A stretch of 59,245 nucleotides of DNA, filler included. It is 4 parts of 4 records of this genome, joined end to end, with 100 filler letters (N's around TTAATTAATTAA, not from the genome) between each part and the next. Parts side by side here need not be neighbours in the genome. Positions count along the whole stretch, not along the records: positions 19,858 to 51,478 come from DRR378314_488; 3 more parts are not named here. One strand, given 5' to 3'. Made by a program: the position numbers and the translations under genes. Below, in pieces: positions 12,132 through 38,540 of this stretch (its first letter is position 1; each line of letters opens with the position of its first letter). The notes beneath the pieces were generated by a model. The model worked only from the letters and a program-made list of their open reading frames with translations, searched no databases and was not told the DNA's origin.

Positions 12132-15100
12132 ATGAAAAAACTGCTTCAAACAGCGCTGGCTGTATCAGTGTCGCTAGCAATTAGTACAAATGTGCAAGCT
12201 GCTGACAAATCCGATGAGCAAAAATGGCAAGTTGACGCCCCACAAGGCCAGTTTATTGACGCTGCAATAAGCGTTGATCAAGGCACTTGGATGAACGTTG
12301 ATGTGAGCCCAGATGGCGAAACCATTGTATTTGATTTACTGGGCGACATTTACACTATGCCCATCAGCGGTGGAAAAGCGACTCAGCTTACCTCTGATAT
12401 TGCTTGGCAAATGCAACCACGTTTTAGCCCTGATGGTAAACACATTGCGTTTACCTCAGATCAAGGCGGCGGTGACAATATTTGGCTAATGGATGTTAAT
12501 GGTGAAAACCAAACGGCTGTTACCGACGAAACCTTTAGATTGCTCAATAGCCCAGCTTGGAGTCCTGATGGCGATTATATCGTGGCACGCAAGCACTTTA
12601 CTGCAACACGCTCATTAGGTGCTGGTGAAGTATGGCTTTACCATAAAGCTGGCGGCAAAGGTGTTCAACTAACGAAGCGTGCTGATGATCAAAAAGATTT
12701 AGGTGAACCGATGTTTTCACCTGACGGCCGTTATGTCTATTTTTCCCATGATGCAACGCCGGGTAAAACTTTCCATTACTCAAAGGATTCTGTTGCCGGT
12801 ATTTATAAAATTAAGCGTTTTGACCGTCAAACGGGTGAAATTGAAACCATCATCAGCGGTATGGGTGGCGCTATTAGGCCAACACCGTCACCAGATGGTA
12901 AAAAGCTTGCGTATATTAAGCGTGATGATTTTCAAACTAGTTTATACGTTTATGACTTAACCTCAGGCAAGCACACTAAACTTTACGACAAGCTTGAACG
13001 TGATATGCAAGAAACGTGGGCGATACATGGTGTTTACCCAACGATTGCATGGACACCGGATAATGACGAGCTGGTATTTTGGGCTGGTGGTAAAATTAAT
13101 AAACTCGATGTTGAAGACAAATCTGTCGAGAACATCGCCTTTAATGTAGACACAAATAAAAAAATTCAAACCGCTGTGCGTTTTATACAAGATATTGATA
13201 GTGAAGATTTCGATATAAAAATGCTGCGTAATGTGCAAGTGTCTCCCGATGGCGAAACGGCTATTTTTGAAGCGCTTGGGCATATTTATAAACGCGATTT
13301 AGAGTCAGGCAAGGTGAAGCGTTTAACGCGCCAAGATGATCACTTTGAGTTATTCCCACAGTATTCTCGTGACGGTAAAAAAATTGTATATGTTACCTGG
13401 GACGATAATGAGCAGGGCAGTGTTCGTGTGGTGTCAGCACGAAGTGGTCGCGGCGAGAGCATAACGCAAGAGCCGGGCAAATATGTTGAGCCAACATTTA
13501 GCCCAGACGGTAAAACCGTGGTTTATCGTAAAGCGTCAGGCGGTGGTATTTTAAATCCAGACTGGTCATTACACCCTGGTATTTACGCGGTGAGTGCTAA
13601 AGGCGGTGAGGCTGAATTAATTACTAAAAGTGGCTATCAGCCGCAATTTGGTGCGACCAGTGACCGTATTTTTGTTATGAGCCCGTGGCCAAAACCAAGC
13701 TTAAGCGTGGTTGAGCTGGATTCTAAAAAAGTACAAAAGCTATATGAATCAAAACATGCGACAGAGTTTAGAGTATCACCTAATGGCAAATACTTAGCGT
13801 TTGCAGAGCGCTTTAAAGTGTTTGTAACGCCACTTGTTGAAAATGGGAAAAGCATTAATATTGGCCCGAAAGACAGCCAATTCCCAATTGAACAATTGTC
13901 TGTTCGTGCTGGTGAAAGCATCAGCTGGAGCGCAAACAGTGATAAACTTTATTGGACTTTAGGCCCTGAGCTTTATCATGCCAGTTTAGCGGGTATTTTT
14001 GATATTAACCAAGCCGATGATGCCGATTTTAAAGTAAAAAGCGGTGACAACATCAGCTTAAGCAAAAAAATGGCTGAGCCAGAAGGCATGTTTGCACTAA
14101 CAGGTGCACGTATCATTACTATGCAAGGCGACAAAGTAATAGAAAACGGTGTGCTACTGACTGATGGTAAACATATTAAAGCAGTAGGTACAGCGCAAAG
14201 GGTGTCAATTCCAAAAGGTGCACAAGTCATTGACGTGGCGGGTAAAACCATTATGCCAGGTATTGTGGATGCCCATGCCCATGGCTCGCAAGGTAGTAAT
14301 GAGATTATCCCTGAGCAAAACTGGAAAAACCTAGCTGGTTTATCATTGGGTGTGACCACTATTCATGATCCATCTAACGACACCACCGAAATATTTGCTG
14401 CCAGCGAAATGCAAAAAGCAGGCACCATCGTTGGACCACGTATTTTCTCAACGGGGACCATTTTATATGGGGCAAATATGCCAGGTTACACCTCGCACAT
14501 TGACTCGTTAGAGGATGCTAAGTTTCATTTAGAGCGCTTAAAGAAAGTGGGTGCGTTTAGTGTTAAATCATACAATCAACCGCGACGTGAGCAACGTCAA
14601 CAAGTAATTGAAGCTGGCCGTGAGCTTGAAATGATGGTGGTGCCAGAAGGTGGCTCATTATTACAGCATAACTTAACGATGGTTGTGGATGGTCACACAG
14701 GGATTGAGCATTCAATTCCAGTGGCAAATATTTATGATGATATCAAACAGCTTTGGTCGCAAAGTGACGTTGGTTATACACCGACGCTAGGTGTTGCTTA
14801 CGGTGGTATTTGGGGTGAAAACTATTGGTATGATAAAACCGATGTGTGGAACCATCCACGTTTAAGTAAGTTTGTGCCGAAAAACCAATTGTTACCGCGC
14901 TCTATGCGCCGCGTTAAAGCGCCCGATCATCACTATAATCACTTTAATAATGCACGCGTAGCGAAAGAGCTGCAAGATTTAGGTGTATTAGTGAATCTAG
15001 GTGCGCATGGGCAGCGTGAAGGTTTAGCTGCTCACTGGGAAATTTGGATGTTTGCACAAGGCGGCATGACGCCACTTGAAGCGCTACGCGCCGCAACACT

Positions 15101-15317
15101 CGACCCTGCTAAATACATTGGCCTTGATAAAAACATTGGTTCACTTGAGGTAGGAAAGCTTGCTGACTTAGTGGTTATTGATGGTAATCCGCTGGAGAAC
15201 ATTCGTGATACTGACAAAGTTGACTACACCATGATCAATGGCCGTTTATTCAACGCAGCCACAATGAATGAAGTAGGTGAGAAACAGCGAGATAAGCTTT
15301 ACTTTGAGCAGAAGTAA
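12132..15317 (+). CDS. Secreted TolB-like beta-propeller (PD40 repeats) fused to an amidohydrolase domain
   Basis: Signal peptide MKKLLQTALAVSVSLAISTNVQA; repeated P-x-F/W-SPDG units; MPGIVDAHAH metal motif; GSLEVGKLADLVV. Confidence 0.88.
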   Translation: MKKLLQTALAVSVSLAISTNVQAADKSDEQKWQVDAPQGQFIDAAISVDQGTWMNVDVSPDGETIVFDLLGDIYTMPISGGKATQLTSDIAWQMQPRFSPDGKHIAFTSDQGGGDNIWLMDVNGENQTAVTDETFRLLNSPAWSPDGDYIVARKHFTATRSLGAGEVWLYHKAGGKGVQLTKRADDQKDLGEPMFSPDGRYVYFSHDATPGKTFHYSKDSVAGIYKIKRFDRQTGEIETIISGMGGAIRPTPSPDGKKLAYIKRDDFQTSLYVYDLTSGKHTKLYDKLERDMQETWAIHGVYPTIAWTPDNDELVFWAGGKINKLDVEDKSVENIAFNVDTNKKIQTAVRFIQDIDSEDFDIKMLRNVQVSPDGETAIFEALGHIYKRDLESGKVKRLTRQDDHFELFPQYSRDGKKIVYVTWDDNEQGSVRVVSARSGRGESITQEPGKYVEPTFSPDGKTVVYRKASGGGILNPDWSLHPGIYAVSAKGGEAELITKSGYQPQFGATSDRIFVMSPWPKPSLSVVELDSKKVQKLYESKHATEFRVSPNGKYLAFAERFKVFVTPLVENGKSINIGPKDSQFPIEQLSVRAGESISWSANSDKLYWTLGPELYHASLAGIFDINQADDADFKVKSGDNISLSKKMAEPEGMFALTGARIITMQGDKVIENGVLLTDGKHIKAVGTAQRVSIPKGAQVIDVAGKTIMPGIVDAHAHGSQGSNEIIPEQNWKNLAGLSLGVTTIHDPSNDTTEIFAASEMQKAGTIVGPRIFSTGTILYGANMPGYTSHIDSLEDAKFHLERLKKVGAFSVKSYNQPRREQRQQVIEAGRELEMMVVPEGGSLLQHNLTMVVDGHTGIEHSIPVANIYDDIKQLWSQSDVGYTPTLGVAYGGIWGENYWYDKTDVWNHPRLSKFVPKNQLLPRSMRRVKAPDHHYNHFNNARVAKELQDLGVLVNLGAHGQREGLAAHWEIWMFAQGGMTPLEALRAATLDPAKYIGLDKNIGSLEVGKLADLVVIDGNPLENIRDTDKVDYTMINGRLFNAATMNEVGEKQRDKLYFEQK

Positions 15318-19757: not shown

Positions 19758-19857
19758 NNNNNNNNNNNNNNNNNNNNNNNNNNNNNNNNNNNNNNNNNNN
19801 NTTAATTAATTAANNNNNNNNNNNNNNNNNNNNNNNNNNNNNNNNNNNNNNNNNNNN
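19758..19857. other. Artificial contig spacer
   Basis: 44 N + TTAATTAATTAA + 44 N. Confidence 0.99.
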
Positions 19858-19858
19858 G

Positions 19859-20512
19859 AAAGTTGTAAGCTACGGCTTACATGGCGATGCGGACGTTCAC
19901 GCGTCCGCACTTTCGTGTGACTCTTTGGGGCGGTATGCTTTTACGCTTGTTGAACGTGGCCAAATCCTGGGTGACGTACAGCTGCCCTTGATTGGTAAGC
20001 ATAATGTGAGTAATGCGTTGGCGGCTGCTACGGCGGCTCTCGCATTAGGCGTTACGCCAGAGCAAGTAGTGACGGGGCTATGCGAATTGTCCTCATTATC
20101 TGGTAGGTTAAGCATCGTGCCCGGCGTGCGCAATACGACGTTGTTAGACGACACGTACAACGCAAATCCTGGTGCTGTGAAAGCGGCGTTGGATGCGTTA
20201 GCGAACTTTCCTTCACCGCGCTGGTGCGCGCTTGGCGCAATGGGGGAGCTGGGCAATGAGTCTCATGCCCTACATGCTGAGATCGGTCATTACGCTGCGT
20301 CACTGGGTATCGATACATTACTGACTTTTGGTGATGCCGCCCGTTCAGCAAGTGAAGCCTTCGGTCGCGGGCTGCATTTTGACGACCACGAGACGCTAGT
20401 GCGTCATGTTATTAATACTCTGCCGCCTAACACCACACTGTTGGTGAAAGGATCGCGTAGTGCAGGCATGGAAAATGTCATTGCTGCGCTACGTGCGGAT
20501 GAAACAAGGTAA
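19859..20512 (+). CDS. murF: UDP-MurNAc-tripeptide--D-Ala-D-Ala ligase, C-terminal part (5' truncated)
   Basis: Frame open from the contig start; GKHNVSNALAA, DDTYNANP, GAMGELG, LVKGSR; precedes mraY. Confidence 0.95.
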   Translation, partial: KVVSYGLHGDADVHASALSCDSLGRYAFTLVERGQILGDVQLPLIGKHNVSNALAAATAALALGVTPEQVVTGLCELSSLSGRLSIVPGVRNTTLLDDTYNANPGAVKAALDALANFPSPRWCALGAMGELGNESHALHAEIGHYAASLGIDTLLTFGDAARSASEAFGRGLHFDDHETLVRHVINTLPPNTTLLVKGSRSAGMENVIAALRADETR

Positions 20513-31354: not shown

Positions 31355-31447
31355 AAAGTGAACACTGTTTCTTAACTTTCTTTCCCCTAGCGGTACTTGT
31401 CGGCACTTTTGCCGGTGACCGCCGTCATTAGAGTTCGACCACTGCCC

Positions 31448-32359
31448 ATGATCAGACAACGCACATTACAAAACGTCATTCGCGCCACCGGAGTGGGTCT
31501 GCACTCTGGCAAAAAAGTCCACTTGGCTTTGCGCCCGGCGCCAGCTAATACCGGAATTGTATTTATCCGGACCGACCTGGAGCCTGTGGTTCACGTGCCG
31601 GCTCGTGCCGAATTGGTGGAAGACACCACATTATGCACCGCGCTTTCTTACCGCGGTGTGAAAGTCGCGACGGTCGAACATTTGATGTCGGCATTTGCTG
31701 GATTGGGCATTGATAATGCCTATGTCGATGTAAGTGCGCCTGAAGTGCCTATCATGGACGGCAGCGCCAGTCCATTTGTGTTCTTAATTCAGTCAGCTGG
31801 CATTTTAGAGCAAGATGCACCTAAGCAATTTATCCGCATTAAGCGCCGTGTTGCCGTCAGTGATGGCGACAAAGAAGCCGTCTTTTTGCCTCATCAAGGG
31901 TTTAAAGTCTCCTTTTCAATCGACTTTAATCACCCTGTATTTGAGCAACAAAAACAAACCGCGTTAATCGATTTTTCAACAACGTCGTTTGTGAAAGAGG
32001 TTTCTCGTGCACGTACCTTCGGGTTTATGCGCGATCTGGAATTTTTGCGATCCAATAATCTTGCGCTTGGCGGTAGCTTAGACAATGCCATTGTTGTCGA
32101 TGATTACCGCATCGTTAACGAAGGTGGCTTGCGCTATGACGATGAGTTCGTCAAGCATAAAGTGCTGGATGCTATTGGTGATTTGTACCAACTTGGCCAC
32201 AGTTTGATTGGTGAGTTCCAGGGGGTTAAATCAGGCCATGCGCTCAACAATCGGTTGTGCCGCGAGTTGTTAGCGCAGCCCGACGCCTATGAAATCGTCA
32301 CCTTTGAAGAAGACAAAGCGGTTGCACCTATCTCTTACTCGGCACCTGCAATGGCATAA
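31448..32359 (+). CDS. lpxC: UDP-3-O-acyl-GlcNAc deacetylase
   Basis: MIRQRTL start, [21 protein letters not shown]. Confidence 0.98.
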
Positions 32360-32455: not shown

Positions 32456-32932
32456 CTATGAATGTTTGTCATCTGAATGATTAGGTGCATGCGCCGCAAG
32501 ACGCTCCAGGGCGTTTCTAAGCGAGGGGTTGTCAGTGTCTTTAGCGCATTCAGTTAGCGTTTTTCCTGCGTTTTCTGAGAGGATGCGCGTGTAGCGCTTG
32601 GGGCTTTCAATCGGCCGAACGGGCCGCACTTTCAGGGTAAAGCCGGTAACGCTTTCAAACCCTGGCAACTGATGCAGTAGGGTTAGCAATCGCGGCTGTT
32701 CATAGCGTAACCACGTTAACCAGCTTGCTTGGCCACTTATTAACGTCAATCGTCCGTCCCGAAAGCCCCCGACGAAAATATGCTCACGCATTGCTTCAGG
32801 AAGATGGGCGCGTAAATGGCGCTGAGCCTGATCAATTAAGCGGGACTGTCGCATAAGCTGTCCAGCGCTGCCCGACTTAGTCAGCAGTTGGGTAATGGGC
32901 TGTGCGCGGGATCGCTTAACCTTTATACTCAT
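32456..32932 (-). CDS. dciA: DciA (DUF721) replicative helicase loader
   Basis: Position antisense between lpxC and secA; ASWLTWLRY and LRNALERLAAH segments typical of the family. Confidence 0.75.
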   Translation of the reverse strand: MSIKVKRSRAQPITQLLTKSGSAGQLMRQSRLIDQAQRHLRAHLPEAMREHIFVGGFRDGRLTLISGQASWLTWLRYEQPRLLTLLHQLPGFESVTGFTLKVRPVRPIESPKRYTRILSENAGKTLTECAKDTDNPSLRNALERLAAHAPNHSDDKHS

Positions 32933-33043
32933 TAACTTGATTCCTGGAACGTTGCTGGCTGCGCCACACTCTCGGTTGTCACCAGCGTTCTGTATTGTCT
33001 TTTAATTGATAGAGCCTAACACGCTCGGGAGCCAGTCCACAGC

Positions 33044-33412
33044 ATGTCATCAACGCCAGATGTTTTGTCTGCTTCGCCGCGGCGGCAACGCCGAAATGGC
33101 CTAGCGCGTTGGTGGCTGGCAGGCCTCTTAGTGAGCTGTTTGTTACCTGCTAGTTTACATCCTTCAGATGCATTTCGTAGTGGTGAGCGCGGCGTCATCA
33201 TCTGTTTTTGGGTGCCCGCGATGCTGCGTGCCCAATCTGAATGGATCGCCAAGAAGCGCTGTGCGCTGCGCCGCTGGGTACGAAAAAAAACGCGCATCCA
33301 TCCTATCGTCTTGCACGGTTCCCGCTATTTTCTTCATATCCCACGTCGATTGGTTGCCGCGATTGATGTGCTGACCCCTCGTGGTCCGCCAGCTCAGCTG
33401 TCCGTTTACTAA
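33044..33412 (+). CDS. Putative SecM-like secretion-monitor leader protein with C-terminal RGPP arrest motif
   Basis: secM-equivalent position; basic N-region plus hydrophobic WWLAGLLVSCLLPASL; LTPRGPP six residues before the stop. Confidence 0.65.
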   Translation: MSSTPDVLSASPRRQRRNGLARWWLAGLLVSCLLPASLHPSDAFRSGERGVIICFWVPAMLRAQSEWIAKKRCALRRWVRKKTRIHPIVLHGSRYFLHIPRRLVAAIDVLTPRGPPAQLSVY

Positions 33413-33481
33413 ATTTACCCTTATTTGCCTTATATAAAAGGGCGCGCCTGAATGGGGCGCTCGTGAAGATTTGGAACTTTC

Positions 33482-36214
33482 ATGATTAATAATTTGTTAC
33501 GTAAAGTCGTTGGCTCTAAAAATGATCGCGACGTTAAACGCATGCAAAAAAGTGTGCTCAGTATTAACGTTTTAGAGCAGGCGCTTGAAGGGGTGAGTGA
33601 CGCTGAGTTGCAGGAAAAAACAGGGCTGCTCCGTCAAAAATTAGCAGAAGGCGCGTCTGTTGATAGTTTGTTGCCTGAAGCATTTGCCGTCGTGCGAGAG
33701 GCCAGTAAGCGGGTAATGAAAATGCGCCACTTTGACGTCCAGATGGTCGGTGGCATGACGTTGCATCGTGGCCGTATTGCGGAAATGAAAACCGGCGAGG
33801 GTAAAACCCTGGTGGCGACGCTTGCCGTCTATTTAAATGCGCTGCCAAGCAAGGGTGTGCATGTTGTCACCGTTAACGACTACCTTGCTCGTCGTGATGC
33901 TGAGTGGATGCGGCCCTTGTATGAGTTCCTTGGGCTATCGGTAGGCGTTATCTATGCTGGTCAAACGGGTGAAGAGAAGCGCCATGCCTATCAGTGTGAC
34001 ATCACTTACGGTACTAACAATGAGTTTGGTTTCGACTATCTGCGCGACAACATGGCGTTCTCGCTTGAGGATAAAGTGCAGCGTGGCCTGCATTACGCCA
34101 TTGTCGATGAAGTTGACTCTATTTTAATTGATGAGGCCCGTACGCCGTTAATTATCTCGGGCGCAGTGGATGAAAACACTGATTTGTATGGCATTGTGAA
34201 TCGTCTGGCTCAACAGTTAGAGCAAGGTGAAGCCTCTGAAGACAGCGATGCGCCGGTCACGGGAGATTTCCTGCTTGATGAAAAACAAAAGCAGGTAGAG
34301 CTTACCGAGCAGGGACATAACAAAGTTGAAGAGCTAATGCGTGCCGAAGGGTTGTTGGGCGAGGGCGAGTCGCTTTATGCCGCACAAAACCTAAACTTGC
34401 TTCAGCATATGCATTCCGCGCTGCGCGCACGGCATCTTTATCATTTAGACGTTGACTACATCGTGTCTGAAGGCCAGGTCGTCATCGTTGATGAGCATAC
34501 TGGGCGTAGTATGCCGGGACGCCGATGGTCAGAAGGGCTGCACCAAGCGGTTGAAGCGAAAGAAGGGGTGACGGTTCAGCGAGAGAGCCAGACACTGGCA
34601 TCGACTACTTTCCAGAACTATTTCCGTTTGTATGAAAAGCTCGCAGGTATGACCGGCACCGCTGATACCGAAGCGTTCGAATTTCGGCAAATTTATGGCC
34701 TGGATGTGGTCGTTATTCCAACCAACCGACCGCTTGCTCGTAAAGATCTGAATGATTTGGTTTATCTGAGTGCGGAAGAGAAATACGAAGCGATTATTAA
34801 AGATGTGAGGACCGAAACCGAGGCAGGGCGCCCTGTTCTAGTCGGTACGGCATCGATTGAAACCTCTGAGTACCTAGCTCGCCTTATGCGCGAAGCTGGC
34901 CTGGCGTTTAATGTGCTGAATGCTAAACAGCACCAAAGCGAAGCAGAAATCATCGCTCAAGCAGGTCGTCCTGGCGCCATTACTATTGCAACGAATATGG
35001 CGGGTCGTGGTACCGATATCGTTCTGGGGGGGAATTGGGAAGCAGAAGCAGCTAAGCTGCAAAATCCCACCCAAGAACAGGTTGATGCGCTAAAGGCGGA
35101 GTGGCAGAAGCGCCATGACGGTGTTTTAGAGGCGGGTGGTTTGCATGTGATTGGTTCTGAGCGCCATGAGTCCCGTCGTATTGATAACCAGTTGCGTGGC
35201 CGTGCGGGACGTCAAGGTGACCCAGGCTCTACACGCTTCTTCCTCTCGTTAGAAGACAGTTTGATGCGCTTGTTTGGTTCTGACCGAGTGAAGCGCTTGA
35301 TGCTGGCTCTTGGGCTAGAGCGCGGTGAGGCGATTGAGCACAAGATGGTGTCTAACGCTGTCGAGCGCGCCCAGAAAAAAGTAGAGGGGCGCAACTTTGA
35401 TATCCGCAAGCAGTTGCTTGAATACGATGATGTCGCTAACGACCAGCGCCGAGTTATCTACGAACAGCGTAATGAAATTCTTTCCGCTGATGAGGTTTCC
35501 GACGCCGTTATCGGTATTCGTGAAGAAGTCATGGAAGATGCCATCAGTGATTATGTGCCACCTCAGAGCTTGGCTGAGCAGTGGGATTTGCCTGGGTTAG
35601 AGGCGCATCTTAAAACTGAATTCAATCTTGATGCTCCTGTTACGCAGTGGGCGGCAGAGGATGAGCGTTTCAGTGAAGAGAAGCTGCGTGAGCGTTTACA
35701 AACGATGCACCGCGATGCGTATCAAGCCAAAATTGAGGCTGCTGGTGCCACGTTGATTCGCCGTTTTGAAAAACAAGTCATGCTCCAGGTATTGGATACC
35801 CGTTGGAAAGAGCATCTTCAGTCGATGGATCACTTGCGTCGCGGTATTCATTTGCGTGGTTACGCCCAGAAGAACCCTAAGCAAGAGTACAAGCGAGAGT
35901 CCTTCGAGTTGTTCCAGCATCTGCTAACGAACATCAAAGCTGACGTTACGCGTATTTTAAGCCACGTTCAGGTTCGTCAGCCTGAAGAGGTTGATGCGTT
36001 AGAGCAAAAGCGCCGTGAAGAGTCAGTACGTGAACGTGCGACAGCAGCAAGCCGCCACGACGACCCTAACGCCCAGCAGGACGATGTTTCACAGGACGCG
36101 CCAGGGGCTGATGGTCGTCCGCTGCGTCGTGAAGGACCAAAAGTAGGACGCAATGATCCGTGCTCATGTGGGTCCGGTAAAAAATATAAGCAGTGCTGCG
36201 GAAAACTAAGCTAA
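33482..36214 (+). CDS. secA: Preprotein translocase ATPase SecA
   Basis: [33 protein letters not shown]-terminal zinc-binding [18 protein letters not shown]. Confidence 0.99.
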
Positions 36215-36250
36215 TCACGCGTGGCGAAATTGAGCGCAAAGGAGAAAAAC

Positions 36251-37480
36251 ATGGCGGTGGGAAATCTTGCTTTTCCGGAATTGCCACCCCTTAATGGGGT
36301 GCGCCTGGGTAGTGCAATGGCAGGTATTAAAAAGCCGGATCGCCGTGATGTTGTGGTGATTGAGCTACCTGAAACTGCCACGGTAGCTGGGGTTTTTACT
36401 CGTAATGCGTTTTGTGCTGCCCCAGTGGTCGCTGCGAAAGCGCATCTTGAAGCGTGTGCAAGCGCAGGGCGTGTGCCTCGCTACTGGCTGGTAAATACTG
36501 GCAATGCCAATGCTGGTACTGGCGCATCAGGCTTGCAGGATGCTTATGCCAGCTGTGAAGCGCTTGCTGAGCAAATGGGCGTTGATAAAAGCCAGGTCTT
36601 GCCCTTTTCAACCGGCGTGATTGGCGAACCTCTGCCCATGACGCGTCTGCTTGCCGGTATACCCCATGCGCTAAATTCCTTAACGGATACTAGCCTTGCT
36701 TGGCAGCAAGCGGGAGAGGGAATTCTAACCACGGATACCCGCGCCAAGGGCGCAACGGCAACCGTTTCAATTGGCGATCAGCAGGTCACGATCAACGGTA
36801 TTACCAAAGGTTCAGGCATGATTAAGCCTAATATGGCGACCATGTTGGGCTTTGTAGTAACGGATGCGGCGATTGCGCAGCCGTTGTTAGCAAGTTTGTT
36901 ACGTGAAACGGTAGATCACTCCTTTAACTGCATCACTGTCGATAGCGATACATCAACCAACGATGCATGCATGTTGGCAGCGACAGGTACCGGCGCTCGC
37001 ATCGAAAACGAAGAGCAGGTGGCCATTTTCCGCAATGCGCTGCAATGCGTCATGACCGAGCTTGCTCAAGCGATTATTCGTGATGGCGAAGGGGCAACTA
37101 AGTTTGTGACGCTCCAGGTGGATGAAGCGACCACTCGGCAGGAAGCCTTGGATGTCGCTTTTACCGTTGCTCACTCGCCGCTGGTGAAGACTGCGCTCTA
37201 CGCTTCTGATGCTAACTGGGGGCGTATTCTAGCCGCTGTTGGGCGCGCGCCGGTTGAGGCATTCGATGTTAACCAAGTCGTGATTGATTTGGGTGACGTT
37301 CGCTTGGTTGAACAGGGCGGCCGTGCCGACAGTTATACAGAGGCTGCGGGCAGCGCTGTCATGGCGCAGGAAGAGATCATCATTCGCATTAATTTGGGCC
37401 GTGGTGAAGAGAGTGCCACTGTGTGGACCTCGGACCTATCTCATGACTATGTGACTATCAACGCGGATTACCGTAGCTGA
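36251..37480 (+). CDS. argJ: Glutamate N-acetyltransferase / amino-acid acetyltransferase
   Basis: KGSGMIKPNMATML autoproteolysis site, DSDTSTND, DGEGATK. Confidence 0.96.
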   Translation: MAVGNLAFPELPPLNGVRLGSAMAGIKKPDRRDVVVIELPETATVAGVFTRNAFCAAPVVAAKAHLEACASAGRVPRYWLVNTGNANAGTGASGLQDAYASCEALAEQMGVDKSQVLPFSTGVIGEPLPMTRLLAGIPHALNSLTDTSLAWQQAGEGILTTDTRAKGATATVSIGDQQVTINGITKGSGMIKPNMATMLGFVVTDAAIAQPLLASLLRETVDHSFNCITVDSDTSTNDACMLAATGTGARIENEEQVAIFRNALQCVMTELAQAIIRDGEGATKFVTLQVDEATTRQEALDVAFTVAHSPLVKTALYASDANWGRILAAVGRAPVEAFDVNQVVIDLGDVRLVEQGGRADSYTEAAGSAVMAQEEIIIRINLGRGEESATVWTSDLSHDYVTINADYRS

Positions 37481-37583
37481 AGTGCACTGAAAAGTAGCCA
37501 AAAACAGTTGCAGTGACGTGCTAATGCAGCGAGATAGCGTCGTCTTTGGTTAGGGCGGCGCGCAAAAAGTGGGTAAAGACGTA

Positions 37584-38540
37584 ATGAGTGTAATGGTAAA
37601 ACGACGAGTTCATGTCGCGGCGGCTGCAATGATCAGCGCCGATCAGAAGCGGGTGCTGATTGCGCGTCGGCCCTCTAATGTCGATCAAGGCGGCCTATGG
37701 GAGTTTCCTGGGGGCAAGCTGGCGCCTTATGAAACAGGCTTGGAAGGTCTCAAGCGTGAGCTTCACGAAGAGCTTGGCGTCGAAATTGTACGGGCCCGGC
37801 CTCTTATCCGTGTTCATCATGAGTATCCTGATAAGCACATCCTGCTAGATGTTTGGCAAGTCCAAGAGTTTGCAGGTGAGCCGTTTGGCCGTGAGGGGCA
37901 GGCTGTGCGCTGGGTGCCTATGGAAGAGTTGGTGAACTATCCTTTCCCTGCCGCTAACTTGCCTATTTTGCGTGCGGTGATGTTGCCCACCGATTATCTG
38001 ATTACCGGCGAAGAAGCTAACGAAGAGCGTTTCGATAGCTTGTTAGAAAGAGCGCTTAGTGAAGACGGCGTAAGACTCGTACAGCTACGGGCAAAAAATC
38101 TTGATGAAGCGGCATACATTGCCCGTGCTGAGCGCGCGCTGCGCCTTTGCCGTCAGTACGATGCGAAGCTGTTGCTGAATGGCGAGCCTGCATTGCTTGA
38201 CGCTGTTGATGCTGACGGAATCCATTTAACCAGCGCACGGTTAATGGACCTTGAGCGTCGCCCGATTGCTGAAAATAAGTGGCTCTCAGCGTCGACTCAC
38301 GATCAAAAGCAGCTTTCTCAAGCCGCGGTTTTAGGGTGTGATTTTGTTACGCTGTCGCCGTTGCGCACTACGCCTTCTCATCCTGAAGTGGCGCCACTGG
38401 GGTGGCATGACTTCCAGCAGCTAGTGGAGCGTGCTGGTATGCCGGTATTTGCACTGGGTGGTATGACACGTTTTGATGCTAACCATGCACGCGCTGTTGG
38501 TGCTCAGGGAATTGCGTCTATTCGTGATTTTTGGAAGTAA
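37584..38540 (+). CDS. Nudix (MutT) / thiamine-phosphate-synthase-like fusion
   Basis: WEFPGGK...RELHEELG Nudix box; C-terminal VQLRAK, SASTHD, PVFALGG ThiE-like barrel. Confidence 0.88.
   Translation: MSVMVKRRVHVAAAAMISADQKRVLIARRPSNVDQGGLWEFPGGKLAPYETGLEGLKRELHEELGVEIVRARPLIRVHHEYPDKHILLDVWQVQEFAGEPFGREGQAVRWVPMEELVNYPFPAANLPILRAVMLPTDYLITGEEANEERFDSLLERALSEDGVRLVQLRAKNLDEAAYIARAERALRLCRQYDAKLLLNGEPALLDAVDADGIHLTSARLMDLERRPIAENKWLSASTHDQKQLSQAAVLGCDFVTLSPLRTTPSHPEVAPLGWHDFQQLVERAGMPVFALGGMTRFDANHARAVGAQGIASIRDFWK

Follow-up and report, generated by a model that had tools for sequence, protein, structure and literature searches.

What does the short open reading frame immediately upstream of secA do in this genome, and could it tune how much SecA is made? 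In the window, a 59,245-nt stretch of DNA assembled from four joined parts, this upstream ORF (uORF) runs on the + strand from an ATG at 33044 to a TAA at 33412 and encodes 122 amino acids. The gap to the ATG of secA (33482–36214, +), which encodes the motor of protein export and is the presumed regulated gene, identified from ORF and domain calls, is 69 nt. Domain calls also place argJ (36221–37480) and a Nudix/TMP-TENI fusion (37569–38540) in succession 3' of secA; on the other side lie the divergent dciA (32456–32932, − strand; PF05258, E 5e-9) and, further upstream, lpxC (31397–32359). The first-pass annotation had described a 122-codon frame between dciA and secA, co-oriented with secA and ending 69 nt before its ATG, and the coordinates agree with this. 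The span that it gave to the feature, 33044–33481, starts correctly and ends too late, because it takes in the 69-nt gap.

Several local signals bear on whether this frame is read. A Shine-Dalgarno-like GGGAG (33027–33031, +) lies 12 nt 5' of the start codon, and of the 12 commonest 18-mers at this place, 11 contain GGAG. An in-frame stop in the 33017–33019 region precedes the start, so the open frame is just 130 codons long in the nearest genome. The promoter scan returned no sites, Rfam had no matches within the window, and the two terminator-like matches, both on the − strand, are fewer than expected from shuffles. An antisense ORF overlapping the uORF (33016–33297) had no meaningful Pfam match, and we set it aside because selection acts on the + frame.

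The encoded protein has a modular layout. Residues 1–43 (33044–33172, +) form a predicted export signal with a long basic n-region, a WWLAGLL core and an A-x-A-like site at residues 41–43; an 11-residue Kyte-Doolittle profile peaks at 2.25 at residue 25, and a published SignalP-6 call for a 122-residue orthologue likewise covers residues 1–43 (PMC10987492). The signal contains a cysteine, Cys32 (33137–33139, +), which is set in an L-V-S-C sequence resembling a lipobox and precedes the putative P-site proline by 83 residues. The spacer that follows is basic (21 K+R versus 5 D+E) and extends for about 70 residues, from 43 to 113. Within it, residues 51–62 (33194–33229, +) make up a second conserved, mildly hydrophobic segment, with P58 and R62 at least 90% conserved. 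This segment could be a regulatory element within the spacer, by analogy with SecM and VemP, for both of which PMC10987492 notes such elements. The chain ends in a candidate arrest segment, residues 103–116 (33350–33391, +), of the form AA-x-DVL-x-x-RGPP, and the RGPP motif itself (residues 113–116; codons 33380–33391, +) lies six residues ahead of the stop. By the toeprint rule of the family discussed below, Pro115 (33386–33388) would occupy the P site and Pro116 the A site, and P-site residue 115 is given for the orthologue (PMC10987492). The basic N-region, hydrophobic stretch, basic spacer and RGPP codons are thus all where the first-pass annotation had put them.

Homologues of the uORF are widespread within one bacterial family. 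The single uORF protein as query matched all 25 same-genus genomes and 1 of 16 others, the latter weakly and with stops, whereas a 15-sequence profile found matches in 273 of 301 genomes of the salt-loving Halomonadaceae, spanning 21 of 25 genera; one genome that it missed (G059) was picked up by a wider profile. Outside the family, a weak partial match (E 7.7e-4) occurred in 1 of 292 genomes of the order. We parsed 76 distinct loci, including the window and five from genomes without a match, and found a uORF before secA in 72, with RGPP in 71 of these and RAPP in one. The sole RAPP member (L051; uORF 1498–1875, −) is without the usual D-V-L-x-x run and has a 188-nt gap to secA. Three of the four uORF-less loci (L060, L061, L063 and L064) instead carry a 314–329-codon frame that by eye is an M23 peptidase (genera g41, g21 and g19), and one (genus g39) has neither, which fits the earlier suggestion that other gammaproteobacteria often have an M23 peptidase in this slot. 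Arrest peptide and M23 gene were never found together at the secA-upstream position in the loci seen. In a search of 1.84 billion representatives, a 36-sequence profile matched 32, of which 29 carry RGPP, one carries RAPP and two short ones are without the motif. These proteins are all 75–145 residues long, and on that ground we reject a fragment or fused form of the M23 peptidase.

Both the motif and the signal are under constraint. A six-frame reading of the window contains R[GA]PP three times, yet at the uORF the motif is more than chance, being kept in 72 of 72 loci despite synonymous variation in all four RGPP codons. Pairwise counts of 40 same-genus loci against the window gave dN/dS values of 0.06 for residues 21–45, 0.10 for residues 46–70, 0.58 for residues 71–102, 0.08 for residues 103–116 and 0.53 for the tail; only the contrast among these values is meaningful, as the pairs are non-independent and pS is about 0.6. 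The uORF is therefore a real gene under purifying selection that is concentrated on the signal and arrest segments, and the pattern proposed at the outset, a conserved N-terminus and R-G/A-P-P around a diverging middle, is what the comparison returned.

The comparison with published arrest peptides that the first-pass annotation had proposed showed that the family is already known, having been catalogued, and a relative shown to stall ribosomes, in 2024. Fujiwara et al. (PMC10987492) define the RQH family and name its secA-upstream Pseudomonadales group uA_RQH_Pseudomonadales, a name carried by 130 rows of their Supplementary file 9. One row of their table is a Halomonadaceae-type uORF of 122 residues with an intergenic width of 69, RGPP at 113, the P site at 115 and a SignalP-6 region of 1–43. 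This protein differs from that of the window at 14 residues by eye, and a locus in our own set whose protein reads the same (L045) is identical to the window at 108 of 122 positions by alignment. The likeness comprises the Halomonadaceae secA uORF itself, the WWLAGLL...CLLP signal and RGPP, leaving only allelic differences. Further secA uORFs in Supplementary file 9 come from Cobetia, Chromohalobacter, Kushneria, Salinicola and Zymobacter; Marinobacter has no entry there.

The window's uORF has the hallmarks by which RQH peptides are recognized. It is a small, unannotated, co-oriented frame right before secA, with an N-terminal signal or transmembrane segment indicated by hydropathy and conservation, a conserved C-terminal RAPP-like motif and a spacer well above the family's >30 residues. 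RQH peptides are by definition non-homologous to ApcA, ApdA and ApdP, and the groups share no overall similarity with one another (PMC10987492); on this point we compared SecM directly, and the near-identical protein is filed under uA_RQH_Pseudomonadales in the published table. RefSeq labels the orthologues 'hypothetical protein', and neither Pfam nor NCBIfam has a matching model, as had been anticipated for annotation pipelines. Among the papers listed by our literature searches there was no later one on the group, and the link between Halomonas and arrest peptides was found in supplements alone, not in the main texts of papers. Reading raw sequence can thus recover a real arrest peptide that databases leave unnamed.

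Experimental evidence for stalling comes from a relative. The tested member was built from the fragment uSecA_Halom_huang, with an R109A mutant as control; the uORF of Halomonas huangheensis is also in the table, with 115 residues and R109 (PMC10987492). It appears to be a more distant orthologue than the 122-residue row. Translation of this construct was arrested in PURE systems of E. coli as well as B. subtilis, with fAP >0.9; every toeprinted RQH peptide had the third residue of its motif in the P site, and the group is absent from those named as weak in vivo in the available text (PMC10987492). RGPP and RAPP have also been reported to cause robust, EF-P-refractory arrest (PMC12992588). By analogy, the window's own allele very probably stalls ribosomes at RGPP while Pro115 occupies the P site. 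These data also bear on a simpler account, in which the uORF encodes an ordinary small exported protein, or is conserved but never translated, and RGPP has no special role. The lack of any Pfam or NCBIfam family would suit such a protein, but the dN/dS pattern, the retention of the motif near the C-terminus and the published arrest of an orthologue (PMC10987492) make it extremely improbable here, and for the family the published arrest largely refutes it.

We therefore favour, with a probability of roughly 0.8, the reading that the uORF is a Sec-pathway monitoring substrate of the RQH family, group uA_RQH_Pseudomonadales, and very probably one whose stalling of ribosomes adjusts how much SecA is made. 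Conservation and dN/dS suggest that the uORF is translated, and ribosomes would then stall at RGPP, as they do in the orthologue and the family. Cryo-EM of ApdA and ApdP shows an A-site Pro-tRNA that is accommodated while peptide-bond formation is blocked (PMC10951233), and the same may hold for RGPP. The signal precedes the stall site by about 70 residues, which puts it outside the tunnel, and it would engage SecA/SecYEG; pulling would then release the stall, as in SecM and VemP. Lagging export would lengthen the stall, keep the mRNA open and allow more secA translation, which would couple secA translation to Sec activity; folding supports the opening of the mRNA in many relatives, not in the window. 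We infer secA induction and export-dependent release from SecM and from uDF_RQH_Enterobacterales, an RQH group for which a hairpin/induction design was shown experimentally and, in the available part of the paper, the only new peptide tested for downstream induction (PMC10987492). For uA_RQH_Pseudomonadales, that part reports neither secA induction nor export-dependent release.

How does this candidate monitor relate to SecM and to other arrest peptides? With E. coli SecM it shares the lpxC-to-secA slot, an export signal, a C-terminal arrest motif and, presumably, the same regulatory logic, and by analogy the uORF may work like SecM. It is nevertheless not a member of the SecM family, from which it differs in motif (RGPP here, FxxxxWIxxxxGIRAGP in SecM) and length (122 versus 170 residues). 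PF06558, the SecM model, matched neither the uORF protein nor its 15-member alignment and was found in none of 251 genomes of the class, the nearest genome included; the E. coli control matched. None of the genomes sampled carried SecM, which left a single sequence in place of a SecM alignment, and the hhalign comparison of A2, our 36-row uORF alignment, with one E. coli SecM (probability 0.14%) is a weak test because its template is a single sequence. The A2 profile likewise found nothing at E. coli secM. Homology to SecM, detected by none of these three routes, is rejected, and together with the published in vitro arrest of an orthologue (PMC10987492) the absence of a PF06558 match supports the original designation of a Halomonadaceae-type arrest peptide distinct from SecM. 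ApdA and ApdP (RAPP) and ApcA (RAPG) also stall at the third motif residue, and the way in which ApdA and ApdP block the peptidyl-transferase centre is probably shared by the uORF (PMC10951233). They differ in coming, with ApcA, from Actinobacteriota and Alphaproteobacteria, and the apdP example lies upstream of secDF, not secA; similarly, uDF_RQH_Enterobacterales of Alteromonas is found upstream of secDF2 (PMC10987492).

Cys32 raises the possibility of a variation on export monitoring. It is invariant in all 36 rows of A2, and C-L-x-P is present in 30 of the 32 library representatives, the other two being without an N-terminus. A lipobox regular expression matched 66 of 72 loci. The pattern used to parse these loci itself contains the Cys, but the independent library matches agree (30 of 32 have it), and 24 of the 30 representatives with Cys satisfy the expression. 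Cys32 might therefore be lipidated or anchor the chain, so that release depends on processing by Lgt/LspA or on a fixed anchor-to-ribosome distance instead of bulk Sec export; the distance from Cys to the P-site Pro is narrow (77–84 residues across loci) although the spacer sequence is poorly conserved. We consider this quite unlikely. The h-region is short, with just 8–11 uncharged residues ahead of Cys, in distant members position −2 is F, L or I or position −1 is T, and an A-x-A-like site is common 9–11 residues after it. The SignalP-6 regions in PMC10987492 end at 43–44, not before Cys, in a pipeline that did handle lipoprotein calls, and the gene downstream is secA, not lgt or lspA. If true, such a lipoprotein-type monitor would make secA expression respond to the maturation of lipoproteins or to anchoring in the membrane; among the papers listed by our literature searches, none linked monitoring substrates to a lipobox. 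A Tat signal is not favoured: the pattern RRx[FGAVML][LITMVF] occurs in 45 of 72 loci and is missing from many distant members, and co-translational arrest fits Tat poorly.

How would a stall reach secA under the favoured reading? With the RNA blocked up to the leading edge of the ribosome, the predicted cost of opening the secA start fell in 27 of 66 loci by more than 1 kcal/mol and rose in 2, with a median drop of 0.8 kcal/mol; five of the 72 loci were left out for a stall-to-AUG distance above 170 nt, and L049 by an N filter. Because removing sequence itself favours opening, we added a synonymous-recoding control on 40 hand-picked loci of the 72. There, the probability that the secA Shine-Dalgarno (SD) sequence pairs with RNA under the stalled ribosome is P>0.5 for 18 loci and P≤0.5 for 22, the mean pairing is 0.41 versus 0.22 for synonymous recodings, and 23 loci lie above their own recoded mean whereas 17 do not. 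In a consensus of 11 relatives, hand-picked for good alignment, the D-V-L codons pair with the SD, and a GCCAY motif is the partner of the RG codons; the SD helix has no compensatory change.

The window itself behaves differently. A predicted local hairpin (33461–33485, +) masks the secA AUG and holds a weak SD (GGA, 33473–33475) in its loop; with the stall region blocked or not, the SD is predicted to be unpaired (P 0.03–0.13) and the AUG paired (0.95–0.97). The drop in opening cost is 0.6 kcal/mol, and the region has a z-score of −1.0 against shuffles, 36 of 200 of which fold as well.

These results bear on the possibility that the uORF stalls ribosomes with no RNA-hairpin switch of secA in the window's clade, the stall instead holding the secA message at the membrane or raising secA translation constitutively. 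SecM has a cis-localising role. This account fits the lack of predicted stall-dependent opening in the window, the change of less than 1 kcal/mol at most loci of its genus and the distance from stall site to secA AUG, which is 96 nt here and varies from 60 to 231 nt over the 72 loci. Against this, equilibrium folding ignores co-translational refolding; in a consensus of 11 sequences from the subclade to which the window belongs, the RGPP codons pair with a GC-rich element just before the AUG hairpin, and a few of the changes are two-sided; and a relative 85% identical to the window (L002) has its SD predicted to pair with the arrest region at P 0.99. We judge a stall with no switch to be unlikely. 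Taken across loci and window, folding makes a stall-opened RNA switch plausible for the family and leaves it unproven in the window. Both the conserved Cys and an RNA switch that varies among clades offer concrete targets for mutation, and the remaining value is modest.

Some minor features complete the picture. The 69-nt intergenic region (33413–33481, +) has alternative GC-rich stems, at 33427–33465. Several related loci (L007–L014, L044 and L047) have extra hairpins inserted in this region, which lengthen the gap to 89–138 nt, and the last 45 nt before secA are conserved in relatives despite these insertions. Elsewhere, a scaffold gap (19759–19858), made up of N runs that flank a short TTAA linker, puts a LysR/DUF218 block next to the interior of the dcw cluster. 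That cluster lacks its start, and the ORF at 19925–20512, in the murF position, covers no more than the C-terminal portion of a Mur ligase. In three close genomes the match to the window begins only at about 19858, and the junction is an assembly artefact with no rearrangement to interpret. Finally, a 1,061-residue ORF (12132–15317) encodes PD40 beta-propeller repeats joined with an amidohydrolase domain, and its product looks like an ordinary secreted amidohydrolase.
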